Positions 13,305-34,171 of a stretch of 35,593 nucleotides of DNA are shown one piece after another. Under the pieces are notes generated by a model. The model did not search any database, was not told the origin of the DNA, and saw only the letters and a program-made list of their open reading frames with translations. Numbering within the stretch: the stretch's first letter is position 1; each line of letters opens with the position of its first letter. Source of the stretch: a virus (taxonomy: Duplodnaviria; Heunggongvirae; Uroviricota; Caudoviricetes); IMG/VR virus record IMGVR_UViG_2703718859_000026; one strand, 5' to 3'. The position numbers and the translations under genes were made by a program.

Positions 13305-13639
13305 GACTGCGGGTGCTTGAGGGGGTCTGCCTCGGGCATGCTGCCGTAAGGCAGACGGAGAAAAGCCCCAGTTAACATTACGTGTCCTGCAAGACGCTTA
13401 ACATTAATCTGAGGCCCAATCTATGTCACACAACCGTAGGTTAGCCTCTTACGTGCCGGAAGGCAAGGAGAAGCAGTCTATGAAGCAGCAAAAGGCGATG
13501 TTAATTCGCCCTGATCGTCATCTGTTTAACCGTCATAGTGACGGCACTGGTAACGAGGAAAGACCTCTGCGAGGTACGAAATGTGTCAGGCATCCTCAAC
13601 GCACCCGTACTTTATTTGTCATATGCTCCGCAAAATGCA

Positions 13640-13671
13640 GGTTGTCGTTGCAACCCGTGCGGTAATTTTTT
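13640..13671 (+). terminator. Weak tR'-like terminator candidate
   Basis: Short stem GGTTG/CAACC followed about 10 nt later by T6; imperfect. Confidence 0.25.
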
Positions 13672-13718
13672 GTGTGCGAGTGCTCAAAAAACGTTGATTT
13701 TCATAAAAGGATGATTTT

Positions 13719-15800
13719 ATGCTGCCAGACCAGCGACCAGCGACCAGCGACCGTAAATCAAGAAAGTCTGTAAAATCTGTTGAACCAGACATTGCCGACC
13801 GGGCTAACAGCTGGCTCAAATCTTATGGACTTGATTACAAACTGGAGCAGGCACCACTTAACAACGAGATCGATAACGCACTGGATGCTTATTTTTCGAA
13901 AAATGGCGGCGCAGGCGGTAATCGTCCCGACGTAAAACTCCTTGTTCAGGACAAATACGGCAAGCAGTATCCCGTTCTCATCGAGTATAAAGGCTACAAG
14001 GACAGGCTTATCAGACTTGGCAGCAACGGTATTATTGAGAACAAAGATGCCAGAAAAGAATGGAATTTTAAAAATATTAATGGATACGCGGTGAATGGCG
14101 CAGTCCATTATGCCAACGCACTTCTTCAGTTCACCAATTACCCTGATATTATTGCTATTGGTATGACCGGCTGGCGCGATGATGATACAGGCGAACTGCA
14201 TCATGAAATCGGCGTGTGGTACGTATCAAAGAATAATTTAGGAGCCGGGCAGAAGGTTGGTGAATTCACCGACTTATCATTCCTTGCTGACAAAAATGTT
14301 GATGGATTTCTCAACAAGATAAAGCTGCTTAATCTTCCTCCCGAAGAACTGGAAAAAATCAAGGCCAGCAAAGAGGAAGAGATAGACACGCGACTTTCCC
14401 GTCTGAATAACGATATTTACCAGAATGAAAAGGGGCTTGGTGAAAGCGATCGTGTTTACCTTGTTGTGGCTACCGTTATTGCAACGTTGGGGATTCCGGG
14501 AAAGTTAGCACCGCTGGATAAAAAAGAACTGACCTCTTCAACGGAGGAGGACTTGCGTGATGGTGATATTATTTTCAGGAAAATAAGGAATTTTTTAAGG
14601 CTGAAAGCTGTTCCTGAAACAAAAAGAGAAATGATTTTGCGCTCGTTGCAAAATACGCTGTGGACTGAAAACATTAACAAACCAGTCAACGGTGAAAGCC
14701 AGTTAAAGCGCGTGTTTGTTAAAGTTGTTGATGATCTTGGGGAGTATTACAAAATCGGACTGACCACCGATTTTACGGGCAAACTGTTTAATGAGATGTA
14801 TCGCTGGCTTGGATTTACGCAGGACAAACTCAATGACGTCGTTCTGACACCACCTTATGTTGCCACATTGCTGGCACGACTCGCCAGAGTAAACAAAGAT
14901 TCCTATGTGTGGGATTTTGCTACAGGTTCTGCGGGATTGCTTGTGGCTGCAATGAATGAAATGCTCATTGACGCCAGAGAAAATATTCACTCACCGAATG
15001 AACTACAACTTAAGGAAGCGCAAATCAAGGCTGAACAGCTTCTTGGCCTTGAGGTGTTATCCAGTATTTATATGCTGGCCATCCTGAATATGATTTTGAT
15101 GGGGGATGGTAGCTCGAATATCCTCAATAAAGACTCGCTGGCCGATTTTGACGGCAAGTATGGATTTGGGAAAACAGGAGAAAAATTCCCTGCGGACGCA
15201 TTTATTCTCAATCCTCCGTATTCAGCTAAAGGTAACGGCATGATTTTCGTGCAGAAGGCGCTGTCGATGATGGATAAAGGCTATGCTGCAGTGATTATCC
15301 AGAGTTCAGCCGGCACAGGAAAGGCTACGGAGTACAACAAAAAAATACTCAAGGAAAATACCTTGCTGGCAAGCATCAAAATGCCTGCGGATCTGTTTAT
15401 TGGTAAATCAAGCGTTCAGACGTACATTTACGTTTTTCAGGTAAAAATTCCGCATAACGCGAAACAGGCTGTTAAGTTTATCGACTTTTCCAATGACGGC
15501 TATGCTCGCTCTAATCGCAAAAAGGCAAGAAACAATCTTGTTGATGCCGATCGTGCAAAAGAGCGTTATCAGGAGGTTGTGGATCTGGTTCACTTCGGGA
15601 AAGGTTGCCTTAATATCTTTACGGAGGATGAATATTTTGAGGGAACAATCGATCCTGATAGTGGTGAGGACTGGAATCAGACCAGGCCAGTAGATACCAG
15701 ACCGACACTGGAGGATTTTAAAAAGACGGTTGGCGACTATCTTGCGTGGGAGGTGTCAAAACTTCTTCAGGGGCGTGATGCGTCAGAAAAAAAGCAGTAA
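13719..15800 (+). CDS. Restriction-modification enzyme subunit: N-terminal PD-(D/E)xK-like nuclease motif fused to gamma-class N6-adenine DNA methyltransferase (BcgI-A / MmeI-like)
   Basis: 693 aa; NRPD71-x17-E89-Y-K91; motif I VWDFATGSAGLLVAA then motif IV FILNPPYSAKG in gamma order; AT-rich relative to flanking phage genes. Confidence 0.7.
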   Translation: MLPDQRPATSDRKSRKSVKSVEPDIADRANSWLKSYGLDYKLEQAPLNNEIDNALDAYFSKNGGAGGNRPDVKLLVQDKYGKQYPVLIEYKGYKDRLIRLGSNGIIENKDARKEWNFKNINGYAVNGAVHYANALLQFTNYPDIIAIGMTGWRDDDTGELHHEIGVWYVSKNNLGAGQKVGEFTDLSFLADKNVDGFLNKIKLLNLPPEELEKIKASKEEEIDTRLSRLNNDIYQNEKGLGESDRVYLVVATVIATLGIPGKLAPLDKKELTSSTEEDLRDGDIIFRKIRNFLRLKAVPETKREMILRSLQNTLWTENINKPVNGESQLKRVFVKVVDDLGEYYKIGLTTDFTGKLFNEMYRWLGFTQDKLNDVVLTPPYVATLLARLARVNKDSYVWDFATGSAGLLVAAMNEMLIDARENIHSPNELQLKEAQIKAEQLLGLEVLSSIYMLAILNMILMGDGSSNILNKDSLADFDGKYGFGKTGEKFPADAFILNPPYSAKGNGMIFVQKALSMMDKGYAAVIIQSSAGTGKATEYNKKILKENTLLASIKMPADLFIGKSSVQTYIYVFQVKIPHNAKQAVKFIDFSNDGYARSNRKKARNNLVDADRAKERYQEVVDLVHFGKGCLNIFTEDEYFEGTIDPDSGEDWNQTRPVDTRPTLEDFKKTVGDYLAWEVSKLLQGRDASEKKQ

Positions 15801-15834
15801 ACTCCCGTCTTGCAGAGCTTGAGCGGGAGTTTAT
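15788..15834 (+). promoter_or_regulatory. Candidate -1 programmed frameshift signal: A AAA AAG heptamer plus 10-bp stem-loop (alternatively an intrinsic terminator)
   Basis: Heptamer at the last two Lys codons of the methyltransferase ORF; stem TAAACTCCCG / CGGGAGTTTA with 16-nt loop begins about 3 nt downstream; the -1 frame is open into the next ORF. Confidence 0.4.
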
Positions 15835-15874
15835 TAAATCTGGTGGTAAATGGGAAGAATACACAATCGAAAGA

Positions 15875-16402
15875 TTGTTCAGTATTCAGACACCTAAAAA
15901 GAAATTTAATGCCAATAAATTAACATTTAATGGCAACTATCCTTATGTTGCCAGAGGAAGTAACAATAACGGCATAAAAGGATATATAGATGAAGATGAA
16001 TTATATCTCAACCCGGGGAATACAATTAGCTTTGGTCAGGATACTGCGACCATGTTCTATCAGGAAAACGCATATTTCACAGGTGATAAAATAAAGATTT
16101 TTTCTCTCAGACATGGAGAGTTAAATTCGCGAATTGCTGTTTTTCTTATATCAGCAATGAAAAAATCTTTTTCAACGTTTAGTTGGGGGAGTAGCTCTTT
16201 TAATGAGAATGTTCTCAATAAGGTAAAGATAAATATACCTACGTTTAATAATGTTCCTGCATATAATTATATGGTAAAGTATATAGAAGAGCTGGAAGCG
16301 GCCCATATAGAAGAGCTGGAAGCGGCCCATATAGAAGAGCTGGAAGCTTACTTGCTGGTTAGCGGACTCGCGGACTCGCGGACTCGCGGACTCGCGGACT
16401 GA
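15875..16402 (+). CDS. Specificity (S/B) subunit, first target-recognition domain plus repeat linker; no ATG start (track start is TTG)
   Basis: 175 aa; TRD-like segment LTFNGNYPYVARGSNNNGIKGYID; C-terminal IEELEAAH repeats; frame open upstream back to within the methyltransferase 3' end. Confidence 0.6.
   Translation: MFSIQTPKKKFNANKLTFNGNYPYVARGSNNNGIKGYIDEDELYLNPGNTISFGQDTATMFYQENAYFTGDKIKIFSLRHGELNSRIAVFLISAMKKSFSTFSWGSSSFNENVLNKVKINIPTFNNVPAYNYMVKYIEELEAAHIEELEAAHIEELEAYLLVSGLADSRTRGLAD
16281..16348 (+). repeat. 24-bp in-frame tandem repeat, about 2.8 copies (ATATAGAAGAGCTGGAAGCGGCCC), encoding (IEELEAAH)n
   Basis: Visible directly in DNA and in the translated ORF (YIEELEAAHIEELEAAHIEELEA). 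Confidence 0.9.
16362..16400 (+). repeat. 8-bp tandem repeat GCGGACTC, about 4.9 copies, at the junction of the two TRD ORFs
   Basis: AGCGGACTCGCGGACTCGCGGACTCGCGGACTCGCGGACTGA; unit length not a multiple of 3. Confidence 0.9.
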
Positions 16403-16464
16403 TAAGCTATGAGCTTACACCACAGGAATATAACGCGATTGAGCTATTAAATAGCAATAATCTT

Positions 16465-16986
16465 ATGTGGGGCACTTATAACCTCAAAAAGTTATTTGGC
16501 CCCGCAATAAGAGGTAAGCGTCTGAAAAACGCAGATCGTATACCCGGCTCCTTGCCTTTTGTTACTGCGGGTGAAGGCAATGAAGGTATTTCTGCATTTA
16601 TCAGTAATGATGTTGTTGTATTCCCTGAAAATACCATTACGATAGATATGTTTGGCTCCGCAAAATACAGAAATTATGAGTATGGTGCAGATGACCATGT
16701 GGCAGTTGTTCATACAGAATTCTTTGACAGAAATGCCGTTATTTTCATAACAGCATCAATTCATAAGTCTTCTTGTACCGGAAAGTTCAACTACGGGAGA
16801 AATTTCTATGCAAAAGATGCCGACGAGTTAATGGTATCTTTGCCGTCAAAAGATAATAACCCTGATTATTCTTTCATGGAGACGCTAATTCTAGCAGTAC
16901 ATAAACTGGTCATCAAAGATGTTGTCCAGTACACTGATAAAAAGCTGGTAGCGTACAGGCAGATTACATCTGAGAAGGTTGTTTAG
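16465..16986 (+). CDS. Specificity (S/B) subunit, second target-recognition domain, in a different frame from the first
   Basis: 173 aa; TRD-like segment RIPGSLPFVTAGEGNEGISAFIS paralogous to the first TRD; frame open upstream through the 8-bp repeats; no Shine-Dalgarno seen. Confidence 0.6.
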   Translation: MWGTYNLKKLFGPAIRGKRLKNADRIPGSLPFVTAGEGNEGISAFISNDVVVFPENTITIDMFGSAKYRNYEYGADDHVAVVHTEFFDRNAVIFITASIHKSSCTGKFNYGRNFYAKDADELMVSLPSKDNNPDYSFMETLILAVHKLVIKDVVQYTDKKLVAYRQITSEKVV

Positions 16987-17108: not shown

Positions 17109-17133
17109 AACCCGCCGATGCGCGGGTTTTTTG
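17109..17133 (+). terminator. Rho-independent terminator
   Basis: Stem AACCCGC/GCGGGTT, 6-nt loop, T6 tail. Confidence 0.6.
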
Positions 17134-17312
17134 TATCCAGAATCCTGTAAGTTATACGGAAAGTACACAGAAAGGAAGGTGCGACCGCAATTAATAACAA
17201 AATCTTAAAAATCGCATATGGCACTATTAGTTTTCTAAATATTGTATATTTTAAGTATTGCAGGATGACCCTGTAACGAAGTTTGCGTAACAGCATTTTG
17301 CTCTACGAGTTT

Positions 17313-17608: not shown

Positions 17609-17825
17609 ACATGCAAAAAAAAGCCGCCCCGGGAAGAGCGGTTGGCAAGAAGAAAAGCAATATGAACAATTAATTAACGCTGCGAATAATACCTTACAGT
17701 AATCACCCTGCGCAACTGTGAGGAGTGTATTTCTTTTTTGCGGGTGGTTGTCTTTTTCCCTTGTGTTTCGGGACTTCCGCTCACTCCTTATCTTATTCAG
17801 TACATTATCCCGGCCGGGAGGATTC

Positions 17826-19865
17826 ATGGCATTTAAACACTATGACGTGGTCAGGGCGGCGTCGCCGTCAGACCTTGCGGAACGAATAACTCAAAAACTG
17901 AAGGAAGGGTGGCAGCCTTATGGTAGTGCGCTGATTTCGACAGCTGGTTATGGTGCGGAGTTCATCCAGCCAGTTGTGAGTGAGGGGAGCATCTCATCAC
18001 CAGAGGAGCCAGGCAACCGTCCGACGACCTCAGCGCCTTCTGTTGCGCCAGAATATTACTATGTGATCGCGCTTGCTGGTCAGTCCAATGGTATGTCATA
18101 CGGTGAGGGACTGCCATTACCGGATACATTCGACAGCCCTGATCCACGTATTAAACAGTTAGCGCGTCGCAGTACGGTGACACCGGGCGGCGCTGCATGT
18201 ACCTATAACGATATTATTCCGGCAGATCACTGTCTCCATGATGTACAGGATATGAGCAGCCTTCATCATCCGAACGCCGATCTGTCAAAAGGTCAGTATG
18301 GCTGCGTCGGACAGGGTTTACATATCGCCAAAAAATTACTGGCGTTTATCCCGAAAAATGCCGGAATCCTTCTGGTACCTTGCTGTCGTGGAGGGTCAGC
18401 ATTTACTTCCGGCGCTGAGGGGGCATTCAGTGAATCGTCAGGAGCGACGGCCGAATCATCCCTGTGGGGTGTCGGCAAGCCGCTGTACAACGATCTGCTT
18501 ACCCGTACAAAAGCCGCGCTGGATAAAAACCCCAAAAACGTCCTGTTATCCGTGGTCTGGATGCTGGGAGAGTTTGATCTGAAGTCAGCAACATACGCAC
18601 AGCACCCGCAATTATTCCTGAACATGGTGAATCAGTTCCGCGCCGATCTCAGCGCATATTCTTCACAGTGCACCGGAGGCAATGCATCATTTGTTCCCTG
18701 GATTTGCGGCGATACCACCTATCTCTGGAAACAAAAATATACCTCTCAGTACCCGGTGGTTTACGGTGCATATCAGAACAAAGAAGCGCAAAAAATTTAT
18801 TTTGTGCCCCTGATGACCGATGAGAAAGGTACTAACACGCCAACAAACCTGCCTGCCGAAGATCCTGATCTGGCAGAAGCCGGTTATTACGGTGCTGCAT
18901 CCCGCAGTAATGGAAACTGGACCTCTTCAGATCGCGCCACGCATTTCAGTTCATGGGCCCGTCGCGGCATTGTTTCTGACCGTCTGGCAACGGCGATCCT
19001 GATGCATGCAGGGAAGACAGCCGCCTTCCTGAAAGGCACACCCGCACCGTTCAGCGTGGTCGTAGCGCCTCCCGCCACGGCAGGTTCAGACAGCGCCACC
19101 ACGGAAAGCCCGCAGCCCTCCACATCTGCACCTCAGCCGGGCGCAGGCACACAGCCATCACCGGAAGTTCCACCGGCAACTGAAACACCGGCAAGAACAA
19201 CTGCCGTCGCTTATCGTGCAGATACACAGGAAGGGAAACTGAAAGAACAGGGCTGGACGGGGGCAGACGGAAAAGCCTCTGTCGTAGATGATTCTGCTGC
19301 TGAGAGCGGTAAAGCCATGCGAGTGGAAAAAGTCCAGGGGCAACAAACAGCCTGGAAAATTGCCCACGATGTGCCTGCAAGTAAAGCAGCTGAATTACTT
19401 CAGAGAGGCGGTGAAATTGCCTTCCGTTTCAAAATTCCCGAAGGTGTTCAGCTGGCAACAAACCGCTTCGCCATGGCCCTGTACTGGCCTGTTTCTCAGC
19501 TACCTGAAAACGTTGTTCTGGAAGGCAGCGCAGGAAACGATATGCTGGCCGCCTTCTTCATCCAGAGCGACAGCGCAAACCTGAATCTGATGCAGCACAA
19601 ACAACAGAATGCAAAACTGGGAACCTTCGGGGCATTTAATCATAACTGGCACAACGTGGTGTTCAGGTTTGCCGGCAATAACAGCATCAGCGTGACACCG
19701 GTCATCAACGGTCAGACCCAGGCGGCCTTTAATCTGGCGAAATGCCCGGCGGCAGGACTGGATAACGACAAGCTGTTACTCACTGACATTACCAGTAACC
19801 AGGATACCTACCCGGTTCTGATTGAGCACGTAACAGTGGCAATCAATAACAGCAACGCCGCATAA
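17826..19865 (+). CDS. nanS-p: Prophage-encoded 9-O-acetyl sialic acid esterase NanS-p (DUF1737 N-terminus plus SGNH/SASA hydrolase domain)
   Basis: MAFKHYDVVRAASPSDLAERITQKLKEGWQPYG N-terminus and GQSN motif (YYYVIALAGQSNGMSYGEG); GGGAGG Shine-Dalgarno before ATG 17826; track start 17718 is an upstream non-ATG extension. Confidence 0.8.
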   Translation: MAFKHYDVVRAASPSDLAERITQKLKEGWQPYGSALISTAGYGAEFIQPVVSEGSISSPEEPGNRPTTSAPSVAPEYYYVIALAGQSNGMSYGEGLPLPDTFDSPDPRIKQLARRSTVTPGGAACTYNDIIPADHCLHDVQDMSSLHHPNADLSKGQYGCVGQGLHIAKKLLAFIPKNAGILLVPCCRGGSAFTSGAEGAFSESSGATAESSLWGVGKPLYNDLLTRTKAALDKNPKNVLLSVVWMLGEFDLKSATYAQHPQLFLNMVNQFRADLSAYSSQCTGGNASFVPWICGDTTYLWKQKYTSQYPVVYGAYQNKEAQKIYFVPLMTDEKGTNTPTNLPAEDPDLAEAGYYGAASRSNGNWTSSDRATHFSSWARRGIVSDRLATAILMHAGKTAAFLKGTPAPFSVVVAPPATAGSDSATTESPQPSTSAPQPGAGTQPSPEVPPATETPARTTAVAYRADTQEGKLKEQGWTGADGKASVVDDSAAESGKAMRVEKVQGQQTAWKIAHDVPASKAAELLQRGGEIAFRFKIPEGVQLATNRFAMALYWPVSQLPENVVLEGSAGNDMLAAFFIQSDSANLNLMQHKQQNAKLGTFGAFNHNWHNVVFRFAGNNSISVTPVINGQTQAAFNLAKCPAAGLDNDKLLLTDITSNQDTYPVLIEHVTVAINNSNAA

Positions 19866-23139: not shown

Positions 23140-23991
23140 ATGGCAAAGCTGGACTGGAAAAAGCTGGAGCAGGCATTCCGACGCGAACATGCCAGAACTG
23201 GCATAAAACTTCAGGACTGGTGTCGTAAGAACAATATCAGTTATGGCACGGCTCGCCGGTACATAAAATTGCGCAAAAACCCCCCCATAAATACAGAGGA
23301 AAGTGCGCAGAAAAATGCGCAAAAAAGTGCGCAAATTGATGATCAAAAAAGCGCACAAAAAAATGTGCAGGGATCCGATGACGAATCCAGTAATGACAAG
23401 GCTTACAGCGATGATGGCAGTGGTGAAAAATGCGCAAAAAACTGCGCAAATTCGGCAGAAACGAAACGCAACAGCAGATCGGGCAATCCTCACCCCGTTG
23501 CCCGGTTTAGCGACCGTAACACCCACGCCGTAAGACACCGTGGATATGCGAAGTATCTTGAGGCAGATAACCTCATGGATGATGCGTCCGACATGGTGCT
23601 GTTCGATGAACTGGTGTTCACCCGAGCCCGCGCACTTTCAGTAACTAAGGCACTTAAAGGGATGTTCGCCGACCTGGAAGAGGCAACTGACGTGGAAACC
23701 CGCGTTGCTCTTTACGACAAAATACTCAAAGCTGAACAGGCCCTTGACCGGAATATTGCCCGTATCGAGTCAATTGAACGCTCATTGCTGACGCTGGATG
23801 TCCTGGCTGAGACAGCACCAAAACTTCGTGCTGACCGGGAAAGAATCAACGCCGCCAGAGATAAACTCAGAGCGGAAACCGATATTCTGACCAGCCAGCG
23901 CCGGGGTGTTATTACGCCAGTCAGTGACATCGTGTCATCGCTGCATGAAATGAGTAATTCGGGGAGACTGGATGACATTCCGGAAGAATAA
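23140..23991 (+). CDS. Terminase small subunit (putative)
   Basis: N-terminal HTH-like segment (KLQDWCRKNNISYGTARRYIKL), low-complexity AQK repeats, coiled-coil C-terminus; immediately upstream of and overlapping terL. Confidence 0.55.
   Translation: MAKLDWKKLEQAFRREHARTGIKLQDWCRKNNISYGTARRYIKLRKNPPINTEESAQKNAQKSAQIDDQKSAQKNVQGSDDESSNDKAYSDDGSGEKCAKNCANSAETKRNSRSGNPHPVARFSDRNTHAVRHRGYAKYLEADNLMDDASDMVLFDELVFTRARALSVTKALKGMFADLEEATDVETRVALYDKILKAEQALDRNIARIESIERSLLTLDVLAETAPKLRADRERINAARDKLRAETDILTSQRRGVITPVSDIVSSLHEMSNSGRLDDIPEE
23304..23448 (+). repeat. Phased 12-bp repeats containing TGCGCA inside the putative terS gene
   Basis: TGCGCA at about 23304, 23316, 23328, 23431, 23443 with variants GCGCAC/TGTGCA at about 23351-23370; encodes (S/N)AQK peptide repeats. 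Confidence 0.6.
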
Positions 23992-32378: not shown

Positions 32379-34171
32379 GTGTTGTTGTTTCGGGGACGCT
32401 GAAATCTCCTGATGGTGAGGCGATATCAGGAGCAAATATTACCCTGACGGCGCTGACAGTTTCACCGGATGCGCTCAGCGGCACCAGTGCGTCGGCAGTG
32501 ACCCGTGAAGGTGGATATTACGGAATGACGATGGATCCGGGGGAGTATGCGGTTTCGGTGACGGTGAAAGGGAAGACAGCTGTCTACGGACGTGTGCGTA
32601 TTGAGGGGACCGAAAGTACGGTGACGCTCAATATGCTGTTACGCCGCAGTCTTGTTGAGGTGAGCATACCCGGAGAGCTGCTGACAGATTTCCGGCAGAT
32701 ACAGAATAATGTGGCTGATGACCTTGCCACTATTCGTCGCCTGAATGAAGACACGGCGACAAAAAACACTCAGGCCACACAGTCAAAAGAAAGTGCAGCA
32801 GCCAGTGCGAAGAGTGCATCTGACAGTGCAAAGACGGCAACCAGCAGGGCGGCTGAAGCCGGACAAAAAGCCAGTGAAGCTGCAGAAGCAGCGACCCGGG
32901 CAGGCGAGTCTGAAAAGGCAGCGGCAGCAGACGCGAAAAATGCAAAACAACATGCTGAAACAGCCCGGGTGGCTCAGCAGGCAGCCGGAGACATTCTTGA
33001 GCGTGCGGAGGCTGCAACGGTCAGTGCAGAGGAAGCCCGGCGCATGGCTGAGAATGCGCGGGGACCTCAGGGCGACCAGGGGCCCAAAGGTGATACCGGC
33101 CCCCGGGGTGAAAAAGGTGAGCCGGGTCAGAGAGGTCCTCAGGGTCCGAAAGGAGAGCGCGGTGAGAGAGGTCCTCAGGGTAGTGTCGGCCCGGCAGGTC
33201 CGCGGGGTGAGAAAGGCGAGCAGGGGGAGCGTGGACCACAGGGATTACAGGGGCTGAAAGGTGAAACCGGAGAACGTGGAGCACAGGGCGCACAGGGACC
33301 GGCAGGCCCGACGGGGGCAACGGGGCCTGCTGGTCCTCGTGGTGAGACGGGGCCACAGGGTGCACAGGGGCCAGCCGGAGCAACAGGACCTGTTGGGCCA
33401 CAAGGAGAGCGCGGTATTCAGGGGCCTGCCGGTCCTGCGGGCCCGCGAGGTGAAACCGGAGCCAGAGGTGAAAAAGGAGACCCCGGGGACCCCGGCGGCC
33501 CACCGGGACCAAAGGGTGATACCGGACCTGCTGGCCCTGCCGGTGAAAAAGGTGAACCCGGTGAGCGAGGGCCACAGGGATTACAGGGACCACCGGGTCC
33601 TGCCGGAGAGAGAGGTCCGGCAGGCGAACCGGGAGCGAAAGGTGAAACCGGAAAACCCGGACCTGCTGGTCCTCAGGGGCAGCCCGGTCCACAGGGACTT
33701 AAAGGTGACAGGGGCGAGCCAGGACCTACAGGCCCACAGGGACCGGCGGGAGAGCGGGGACCTCAGGGGCCTCGGGGGGTAGCTGGTCCTGTCGGCCCGG
33801 CAGGTGCAGCGGGCGCTAAAGGTGATGCAGGACCTGCAGGGCCTGCCGGTCCCCGAGGACCCGCCGGTGAACGGGGCCCTGCCGGGCCGAAAGGTGAGCG
33901 TGGTGAACCGGGACCGATGGGGCCTCCGGGGCCAGCAGGCGACGCAGGAAACAGCACAGTAAAAGGCATTCGTCTGGGAAATGAGATGGTGTACCGTCCA
34001 TATAGTGGCTATAGCAACTTGAGCCTACGCTCAATGGATGGCTGTGTGCTTACGGGAATTGCGGGAACAAACATGCCAGACAAGAGCCGTATAGATGAAA
34101 TCTACTACAGACCCTTGCAAATGACTTTTGGTGATGGAAGCTGGCGCTCAGTCGGTATAGGGGAAGTGTGA
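32375..34171 (+). CDS. Tail fibre protein with collagen-like Gly-X-Y repeat domain
   Basis: 598 aa; Ala-rich coiled segment, then about 98 consecutive G-X-Y triplets (aa about 230-525), then a globular C-terminus; followed by tail fibre assembly gene. Confidence 0.7.
33062..33950 (+). repeat. Collagen-like triplet-repeat coding region (GGN CCN / GGN GAN ... periodicity)
   Basis: Protein shows uninterrupted [22 protein letters not shown]... pattern; DNA correspondingly GC-rich and repetitive. Confidence 0.85.

Follow-up and report, generated by a model that had tools for sequence, protein, structure and literature searches.

A predicted BcgI-like Type IIB restriction-modification locus of Stx-type prophages with a length-variable 8-bp repeat in its specificity module and a candidate −1 frameshift signal

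We analysed a restriction-modification locus carried by a 35,593-nt stretch of viral DNA (IMG/VR record IMGVR_UViG_2703718859_000026; hereafter the window), in which an 8-bp tandem repeat interrupts the specificity (S) coding sequence. The features of this locus lie on the + strand. The locus opens with a gene that we call RM (positions 13719 to 15800), which encodes a 693-aa fused nuclease-methyltransferase resembling BcgI A. It is preceded, 7 nt 5' of the start codon, by the Shine-Dalgarno (SD)-like sequence AAAGGA (13706 to 13711), and this SD-ATG context is common to all near relatives. The RM protein matches Pfam N6_Mtase (E 5e-21) and, over residues 17 to 684, the PADLOC model REase_MTase_IIG PDLC03616 (E 5e-234), with a further match to PDLC03602 (E 8e-45). 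Its N-terminal part carries a PD...ExK nuclease motif (P70 D71 ... E89 Y90 K91, positions 13926 to 13991), where I88, E89 and K91 are invariant in a 6-sequence alignment that includes H. influenzae homologues (36% identity); a weak Pfam match to VRR_NUC covers residues 36 to 98. The catalytic motif NPPY of the methyltransferase (N498 to Y501) is encoded at positions 15210 to 15221, and N498, P499 and P500 are invariant in the same alignment.

As expected of a Type IIB system, a single polypeptide combines an N-terminal PD-(D/E)xK nuclease with the N6-adenine methyltransferase (NPPY), and the S module has two target recognition domains (TRDs) in the layout TRD1-CR1-TRD2-CR2, interrupted in the window by the 8-bp tract. 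A Type I classification was rejected: annotation of the regions around 16 related loci shows no hsdR gene, RM scores 36 bits against the NCBIfam hsdM model (cut-off 242.75), and nuclease and methyltransferase form one fused protein. On sequence grounds the system is thus a BcgI-like Type IIB restriction-modification system composed of RM and S, and a GenBank phage record labels the large protein 'BcgI alpha chain-like'. The matching PADLOC models are 637 and 341 positions long, which we take to be the lengths of BcgI A and B. A phmmer search of RM against PDB sequences gave no match, the similarity to the solved BsaXI being too low.

The S module is encoded in two parts. Part 1 (15794 to 16402), in the −1 frame of RM, comprises the linker AVNSRLAELEREFIKSGG, TRD1 and the central helix CR1; it matches Pfam Methylase_S (E 1e-22), and its N-terminal peptide is conserved in five related loci (L012, L017, L018, L019 and L021). 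Part 2 (16362 to 16986) comprises TRD2 and the C-terminal helix CR2, with a first ATG at 16465 that has no SD-like sequence upstream; residues 202 to 358 of the fused S match the PADLOC model Specificity_II PDLC03591 (E 8e-28). An AlphaFold2 (AF2) model of a naturally fused S protein, P0001 (mean predicted local distance difference test score, pLDDT, 69.5), places TRD1 at residues 6-138, the CR1 helix at 144-176, TRD2 at 210-337 and the CR2 helix at 343-377, with a disordered stretch at 177-187, and a Foldseek search with it retrieved HsdS crystal structures (1ydx, E 4e-14; EcoKI; EcoR124I) and the BsaXI S subunit. The RM-S unit ends with an intrinsic terminator-like hairpin and T-run (17109 to 17138).

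The TRD1 and TRD2 frames meet at the 8-bp tract (16362 to 16400), in the linker between CR1 and TRD2. The initial annotation had described it as about 4.9 copies of an 8-bp unit between two TRD open reading frames (ORFs), and Tandem Repeats Finder returned the same array (period 8, consensus GCGGACTC, 4.9 copies, 100% matches, no indels); its letters read TTA, four times GCGGACTC, then GCGGACT GATAAGC. Being a perfect 39-nt array, the tract is beyond chance. As had also been noticed, the first TRD frame stops directly 3' of the repeats (TGA, 16400 to 16402) and the TRD2 frame is open across the whole tract, from 16362 to its stop at 16984 to 16986, its first ATG being that at 16465. The tract is out of frame in the window, which is the split state. 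We resized it in silico, counting codons from 15779. With 1, 4 (the window) or 7 full units S ends in ...GLAD, with 2, 5 or 8 it ends in ...SRTDKL, and with 3, 6 or 9 the TRD1-TRD2 frame is continuous over 399, 407 or 415 codons. The ORFs are joined when one unit is lost or two are gained, just as the initial annotation had calculated; its length for the fused S (about 350 aa) was too low, the figure being about 381 to 395 aa, and the TTG at 15875 that it took as the start of the first ORF is a gene-caller artefact, since the conserved S peptide already starts at 15794. A contingency locus is expected to have just such a tract of non-triplet units within a coding sequence, the frame depending on tract length.

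We then compared the tract among relatives. A megablast search of 5426 complete E. coli genomes located the locus in 30 of them, and one phage record also had it; further loci were taken from IMG/VR and from one Salmonella contig. The tract is present in 12 DNA loci of E. coli and Salmonella prophages, with 4 to 26 full units: 4 in the window and L001, 6 in L002, L003 and L032, 7 in L045, 8 in L004, 11 in L005, 12 in the Salmonella locus L018, 16 in L006 and L007, and 26 in L023. S is fused only in the 4 loci of the 12 whose unit number is a multiple of 3. RefSeq annotation includes split and fused S genes alike, and in the fused loci L002 and L003 it gives S as one gene, 1128 or 1146 nt long. 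Fused S proteins in databases carry 1, 2, 3, 4 or 5 copies of the encoded insert ADSRTRGL, whose position corresponds to the disordered loop of the AF2 model (residues 177-187, pLDDT below 50).

Flanking sequences were compared over equal-length or aligned segments only, as 1-nt offsets inflate pairwise mismatch counts. Over the 2528 bp that separate a 7-bp tract in RM from a 24-bp repeat in CR1 (both described below), the window, L001-L005, L007 and L023 differ by 0 or 1 single-nucleotide polymorphism (SNP). The window, L002 and L023 show no difference in these 2528 bp nor in about 1450 bp downstream, and have 4, 6 and 26 units; 1 SNP in 5.5 kb separates L004, with 8 units, from L005, with 11. 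Altogether, loci whose flanks are identical or 1 SNP apart carry 4, 6, 8, 11, 16 or 26 units. We therefore infer, from near-invariant flanks and differing unit numbers, that the 8-bp tract mutates much faster than the neighbouring DNA. Near-identical sequences that differ in tract length, some alleles being in frame and others out of frame, are again what a contingency locus would show. A more distant relative (P0019/L019, 79% identity) has no full unit: its DNA TTAGTGGACTGATC encodes LLVSGLISYELTP, which is the ancestral state, and the ADSRTRGL insert is missing from every other family member too. Because these relatives lack the insert, the array is taken as a lineage-specific expansion of one GCGGACT. 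The reading of the 8-bp tract as a phase-variable element is thus well supported by comparison of natural alleles.

Besides the 8-bp tract, the locus holds two other variable repeats. A 7-bp tract (GACCAGC x3.6 by Tandem Repeats Finder, 13728 to 13752) occupies RM codons 4-12 and encodes DQRPATS. Its copy number ranges from 3.6 to 120.6 in relatives, and RM is in frame with its SD-ATG (ON) in 10 of 25 loci, the window among them. The tract stands at the same place in alleles with a synonymous divergence (dS) of about 1 (L012, L019); the reverse translation of the array has been mis-annotated by PGAP as a 'YXWGXW repeat-containing protein'. The third repeat, found with the same program, is an in-frame 24-bp unit (x2.8, 16281 to 16347) that encodes IEELEAAH inside CR1. 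Relatives have 1, 2 or 3 full units of it, and Haemophilus and Microcystis homologues have analogous 8-aa repeats, their S lengths stepping by 8 aa. By analogy with known systems (see below), the number of 24-bp units should alter the spacing of the target's two half-sites. Besides these three, a 17-bp direct repeat (TCAAAAAACGATGATTT x2.1, 13684 to 13718) overlaps the SD sequence, with its end at the start codon of RM; L010 has it as well, and it may be a regulatory site.

We then looked at how S could be translated. The S peptide (...KK AVNSRLAELEREFIKSGGKW...) starts at 15794 in the −1 frame of RM, and the S frame contains no ATG, GTG or TTG before 15875, a position already within TRD1. The 3' codons of RM read GAA AAA AAG CAG TAA and include, in the RM frame and one codon 5' of the stop codon TAA (15798 to 15800), the slippery heptamer A_AAA_AAG (15788 to 15794). 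Downstream lies an RNA hairpin (15796 to 15835) with a GC core formed by ACUCCCG (15801 to 15807) and CGGGAGU (15824 to 15830); its minimum free energy is −20.3 kcal/mol (z −4.8), and 0 of 200 shuffled sequences were as stable. A heptamer at the junction, a downstream structure at 5-9 nt and a conserved segment without an initiation codon, as expected of −1 frameshifting, are thus all found. The A7 run at 15787 to 15793 is constant in all 10 loci of the window's allele, and other alleles have G_GGA_AAR instead, which fits ribosomal slippage and not slippage in replication or transcription; a homopolymeric phase-variation tract was rejected on the same observations.

The arrangement is conserved far beyond the window's allele. 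A second E. coli allele family (L014) has G_GGA_AAG TAA followed by a 13-bp hairpin. The heptamer G_GGA_AAG occurs in H. influenzae (L017) and in a Logan contig, A_AAA_AAA in Salmonella (L018), and A_AAA_AAG in a phage-like contig from ENA. We surveyed the junction in 80 IMG/VR loci found with an RM profile. In the 35 loci of class A (RM at least 60% identical to that of the window, plus two clades at about 30%), S is invariably in the −1 frame of RM, the heptamer AAAAAAG, GGGAAAG, GGGAAAA or AAAAAAA stands 0-3 nt before the RM stop (24 nt in one locus), and the S frame offers no possible start codon until 14-218 nt downstream. Nearly all class A hairpins start 5-8 nt after the heptamer, with energies of −15 to −24 kcal/mol and z values of −3 to −7. 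About 40 loci that are more distant form class B: here an ATG belonging to S itself overlaps the RM stop, and no heptamer was found at these junctions save one chance GGGAAAC. Beyond this survey, a −1-frame S with an X_XXY_YYZ heptamer is found in the window, L012, L014-type loci, L017, L018, L019 and L021. Taken together, about 40 loci, which between them have more than 20 distinct junction sequences, conserve the layout of heptamer and hairpin. The start-less −1-frame arrangement itself is shared by L012, L014, L017-L019, L021, L022-L045, L061-63 and L086-88.

What follows the heptamer is a conserved peptide, (K)xVNSRLxxLExEFxxxGG or GK(V/I)(N/D)xxLxxKLxxVxWGE, which begins at the heptamer itself. 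Natural in-frame relatives of the junction exist: L047 encodes an 849-aa RM~TRD1-CR1 protein with the same linker peptide, and in P0121, P0122 and P0146 the RM C-terminus runs in frame through ...SVISRNLDNLEREFRSKGG... into a full S. In another in-frame RM-S relative, a metagenomic one, RM is broken at NPPY by a C8 run (CTAACCCCCCCCGTATTCC; L102 at about 1805-1815, and L103); the break is the same in two samples and may be a phase-variation tract or a sequencing error.

The hairpin was submitted to a covariation test on 14 distinct GGGAAAR junctions. Over the 13-bp helix, 90.7% of cells are paired, compared with 35-47% in slid controls; double-sided changes occur at 4 pairs, and none of 500 shuffles attained a score as high. 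Two points count against a frameshift. Each arm of the hairpin lies in coding sequence, so that part of the hairpin conservation is protein constraint; the sequences used in the covariation test are moreover related. In addition, PGAP starts S at ATT 15833 or TTG 15875. These starts are unlikely, as conserved coding sequence with synonymous changes lies 5' of both. A start at ATG 15778 followed by a +1 shift was ruled out, this ATG not being conserved and the frame being unreachable for GGGAAAR junctions, and most alleles lack the U-run that would make the hairpin a transcription terminator. No frameshift-element family of Rfam matches at the RM-S junction. Given that S lacks a start codon and is read in the −1 frame, behind A_AAA_AAG and a hairpin, it is most likely a C-terminal extension of RM, and −1 ribosomal frameshifting is, judging from the conserved signals, the likeliest route to S here, a conclusion in which we have good confidence. 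We found no description of frameshifting in a restriction-modification system in the literature searched, and the part of a 2016 recoding review available to us does not mention such systems.

These observations can be combined in a model that we regard as probable, in which a hypermutable 8-bp repeat in the CR1-TRD2 linker of a Type IIB S module, itself translated by frameshifting, switches the number of TRDs. Loops of 8 bp escape mismatch repair, and slipped-strand mispairing would add or remove units. With a unit number that is a multiple of 3, translation would proceed through TRD1-CR1-(ADSRTRGL)n-TRD2-CR2, and a bipartite asymmetric target is predicted; with any other number (4 in the window), a stop codon 0-5 codons past the tract would leave a product with TRD1-CR1 only, which, by analogy with truncated HsdS and HaeIV, is predicted to dimerise on a symmetric target. 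A single mRNA would give RM (about 79 kDa), ending at TAA 15798, and, by −1 slippage, RM extended by S, the predicted trans-frame junction being ...DASEKK|AVNSRL.... The extended product would be RM~TRD1-CR1 (894 aa) in the split state and RM~TRD1~TRD2 (about 1086 aa) in the fused state, and RM together with RM~TRD1~TRD2 would reproduce the 2 RM : 2 TRD composition of BcgI. The locus thus probably toggles between a HaeIV-like RM~TRD1 and a BcgI/AloI-like RM + RM~TRD1~TRD2. The 8-bp tract would select an asymmetric bipartite or a symmetric target, the 24-bp repeat would tune the gap, and the 7-bp tract would set the whole enzyme ON or OFF. The toggling between one and two TRDs through a non-triplet repeat that the initial annotation had proposed is supported by the natural variation of the tract; the anatomy that it assumed had to be revised, the system being Type IIB, S an apparent extension of RM and the tract one of three repeats. 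Likewise, the truncated TRD1 form that it called a half-S subunit is indeed encoded; as the system is BcgI-like Type IIB, this form is probably a C-terminal extension of RM and not a free subunit. On a broader scale, it seems somewhat favoured that an entire BcgI-like branch, found in E. coli and Salmonella prophages, H. influenzae and many IMG/VR contigs, makes S by a conserved −1 frameshift (A_AAA_AAG or G_GGA_AAR plus hairpin) to give RM and RM~S, the Stx-type version adding combinatorial phase variation through 7-, 24- and 8-bp repeats.

Three points tell against a selected specificity switch. S is fused in 4 of 12 loci and RM is ON in 10 of 25, both matching the one third expected from unselected drift; an active Type IIB nuclease that changed its specificity would meet unmodified sites in the chromosome, so that the model presumes some tolerance of self-restriction during the switch; and ATG 16465 lies exactly where the stand-alone S proteins of relatives begin (MEWG...). 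Because the fused fraction is the one third expected without selection, population frequencies cannot decide between a switch and decay. The tract could be a neutral, expanding microsatellite at a permissive linker of a dispensable moron gene, the split amounting to loss of TRD2 and not to a selected switch. Besides these near-random fractions, the 7-bp array, which reaches 120 copies like a runaway minisatellite, speaks for this explanation, as do an IS1 insertion in S of one locus and the frameshifts of the neighbouring hok gene in several loci. However, the ratio of nonsynonymous to synonymous substitutions (dN/dS) indicates strong purifying selection, being 0.15 for TRD2 (E. coli versus Salmonella allele, dS 0.81, with a perfect tract in both) and about 0.05 for RM between allele families. 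The ORFs outside the repeats are undamaged in more than 30 loci, save for that one IS1 insertion; alleles as far apart as dS 0.8 to 1.3 retain perfect tracts at identical sites; and three different repeats stand at three functionally meaningful points of one locus. We thus hold a neutral microsatellite to be unlikely. A maintained contingency locus fits the pattern of selection better than a dying gene does, which by itself does not prove that the switching is adaptive. The insertion is an IS1A element at L006 4402-5099 (strain 2015C-3121), in the N-terminal part of the S frame.

The position of ATG 16465 raises another possibility, namely that a free TRD2-CR2 half is made from this codon and reassembles with TRD1-CR1, the tract then altering connectivity or dosage and not the target. 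The peptide from this ATG (MWGTYNLKKLF) indeed begins where the stand-alone S of relatives does (P0034, MEWGVFNLEELF), and co-expressed N- and C-terminal halves of the EcoDXXI S subunit restore wild-type specificity (PMC3874165). Yet no SD-like sequence precedes 16465, the methionine is not conserved (other alleles have FVWG or LEWG), and in two of the three frames the TRD2 frame is entered only past a stop, with no coupling signal, which makes separate translation quite doubtful. Finally, long-read assemblies can mis-size tandem repeats, and the copy-number differences might be sequencing or assembly artefacts at a truly invariant locus. This is very improbable: the differences are whole 8-bp units (2 to 22), they are seen in finished genomes that different laboratories obtained on different platforms, as well as in IMG/VR contigs and Salmonella, and independent protein records carry 1-5 in-frame inserts.

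The switch proposed here, from one to two TRDs by repeat number, has precedents. Repeat-controlled truncation of S is already known in Type I systems, both from NgoAV and from a survey of hsdS genes (PMC7383803), in which Atack et al. (2019), using REBASE, found candidate tracts in 7.9% of hsdS genes. Truncated S homodimers, NgoAV, the TAEL gap repeats and the compositions of HaeIV, BcgI and AloI are reviewed in PMC3874165. In NgoAV of N. gonorrhoeae and in hsdS genes with simple sequence repeats (SSRs; GCAA[n], Haemophilus parasuis), a non-triplet repeat likewise lies between TRD1 and TRD2; in the NgoAV type, tract length decides between a full-length and a TRD1-only S, and the truncated form has a symmetric specificity. 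The unit is an octanucleotide here and a homopolymer or tetranucleotide there. The present locus further differs from NgoAV in being Type IIB, with a fused nuclease-methyltransferase and no HsdR annotated, in being carried by lambdoid Stx-type prophages of E. coli and Salmonella, and in its apparent RM-S frameshift and two more variable repeats. In Campylobacter, a fused Type IIG enzyme is reported to be phase-variable, according to a citation in a preprint on an O111 methylome. The 24-bp repeat resembles the TAEL repeats of EcoR124I and EcoR124II, also a short in-frame repeat of varying number in the central helix of S, where repeat number alters the gap between half-sites (PMC3874165); the unit is 8 aa here (IEELEAAH, 24 bp) and 4 aa there.

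BcgI and BsaXI (Type IIB, 2 RM + 1 S) share with this system the N-terminal PD-(D/E)xK nuclease, the gamma-class N6-adenine methyltransferase and the TRD1-CR1-TRD2-CR2 layout of S. They have a separate S subunit, according to three reports (PMC3592470, PMC9159934, PMC11997821), whereas S here is start-less and lies behind a −1 slippery site. The predicted split-state RM~TRD1-CR1 has the composition of HaeIV, an RM~single-TRD homodimer with a symmetric site, and the predicted fused-state RM~TRD1~TRD2 has that of AloI, which like CjeI is a single-chain RM~S1~S2 (PMC3874165). In-frame relatives of both kinds occur naturally (L047 for HaeIV; P0121 and P0146 for AloI). Unlike these enzymes, one gene pair would here give either form by repeat number, plus free RM. 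How AloI and CjeI manage without a second copy of RM has been called a mystery (PMC3874165), and an engineered EcoKI M-S fusion is active but requires extra free M (PMC3510504).

As to the signal itself, the G_GGA_AAG heptamer of some junctions is identical to that of the G/G-T frameshift of phage lambda. The heptamer of the window, A_AAA_AAG, is that of dnaX (PMC4344849). Further shared features are a stable hairpin 5-8 nt downstream and, in many junctions, SD-like purine runs 7-14 nt upstream, and two products at a fixed ratio from one mRNA are predicted for RM-S too. The differences are that the gene family is unrelated, that the heptamer here directly precedes the stop of the upstream frame, and that the frameshift is predicted. 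What is new in this locus is the Type IIB context, the 8- and 7-nt units, the presence of three repeats, the Stx-type prophage carrier and the apparent RM-S frameshift, the last being its most novel element. No description of the locus was found in the literature searched; the preprint on an O111 methylome concerns a different enzyme.

If the model holds, prophages of Shiga-toxin E. coli carry a stochastic, heritable switch of the sequences that are methylated and restricted, which would bear on superinfection exclusion, on gene flow between Shiga-toxin-producing E. coli lineages and possibly on phasevarion-like gene regulation. E. coli is considered poor in SSR contingency loci; with units of 7 and 8 bp, which would sidestep mismatch repair, this would be one of them. 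A confirmed frameshift would explain the source of the second catalytic subunit for a fused RM~S, left open for AloI and CjeI, and would bring restriction enzymes into the short list of bacterial −1 recoding genes, as the first recoding event in a restriction-modification system within the literature searched. The annotation of these S genes, for example from ATT or TTG starts, is probably wrong in hundreds of genomes.

The RM-S locus lies 3' of the Q antiterminator gene in a Stx-type lambdoid prophage; in lambdoid prophages its neighbours are Q and hok/sok on one side and the stx or nanS-p region on the other. Directly 5' of RM are a sok antitoxin RNA (Rfam RF01794, 97.6 bits; 13311-13482) and a hok-like ORF (13423-13665), and several near-identical loci have a hok gene that RefSeq marks as frameshifted. 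In several relatives stx2 or stx1 is directly downstream, and relatives carry tRNA-Ile/Arg/Arg and stx2 or stx1 between S and the nanS-p esterase gene. No tRNA genes were found in the window, where S runs straight to the esterase gene (17718-19865) as in strain 2018-166; the downstream 1.5 kb is identical to that of stx-less relatives such as this strain. Salmonella homologues of S (P0024, P0039, P0076, P0087) are named 'phosphoribosylglycinamide formyltransferase' in NCBI, an evident propagated annotation error. Elsewhere in the window, a tandem repeat of 12/24-bp units (AAAGTGCGCAAA...) lies at 23300-23450, and a 36-bp coding repeat of collagen-like G-x-y type at 33113-33181 probably belongs to a tail-fibre gene.

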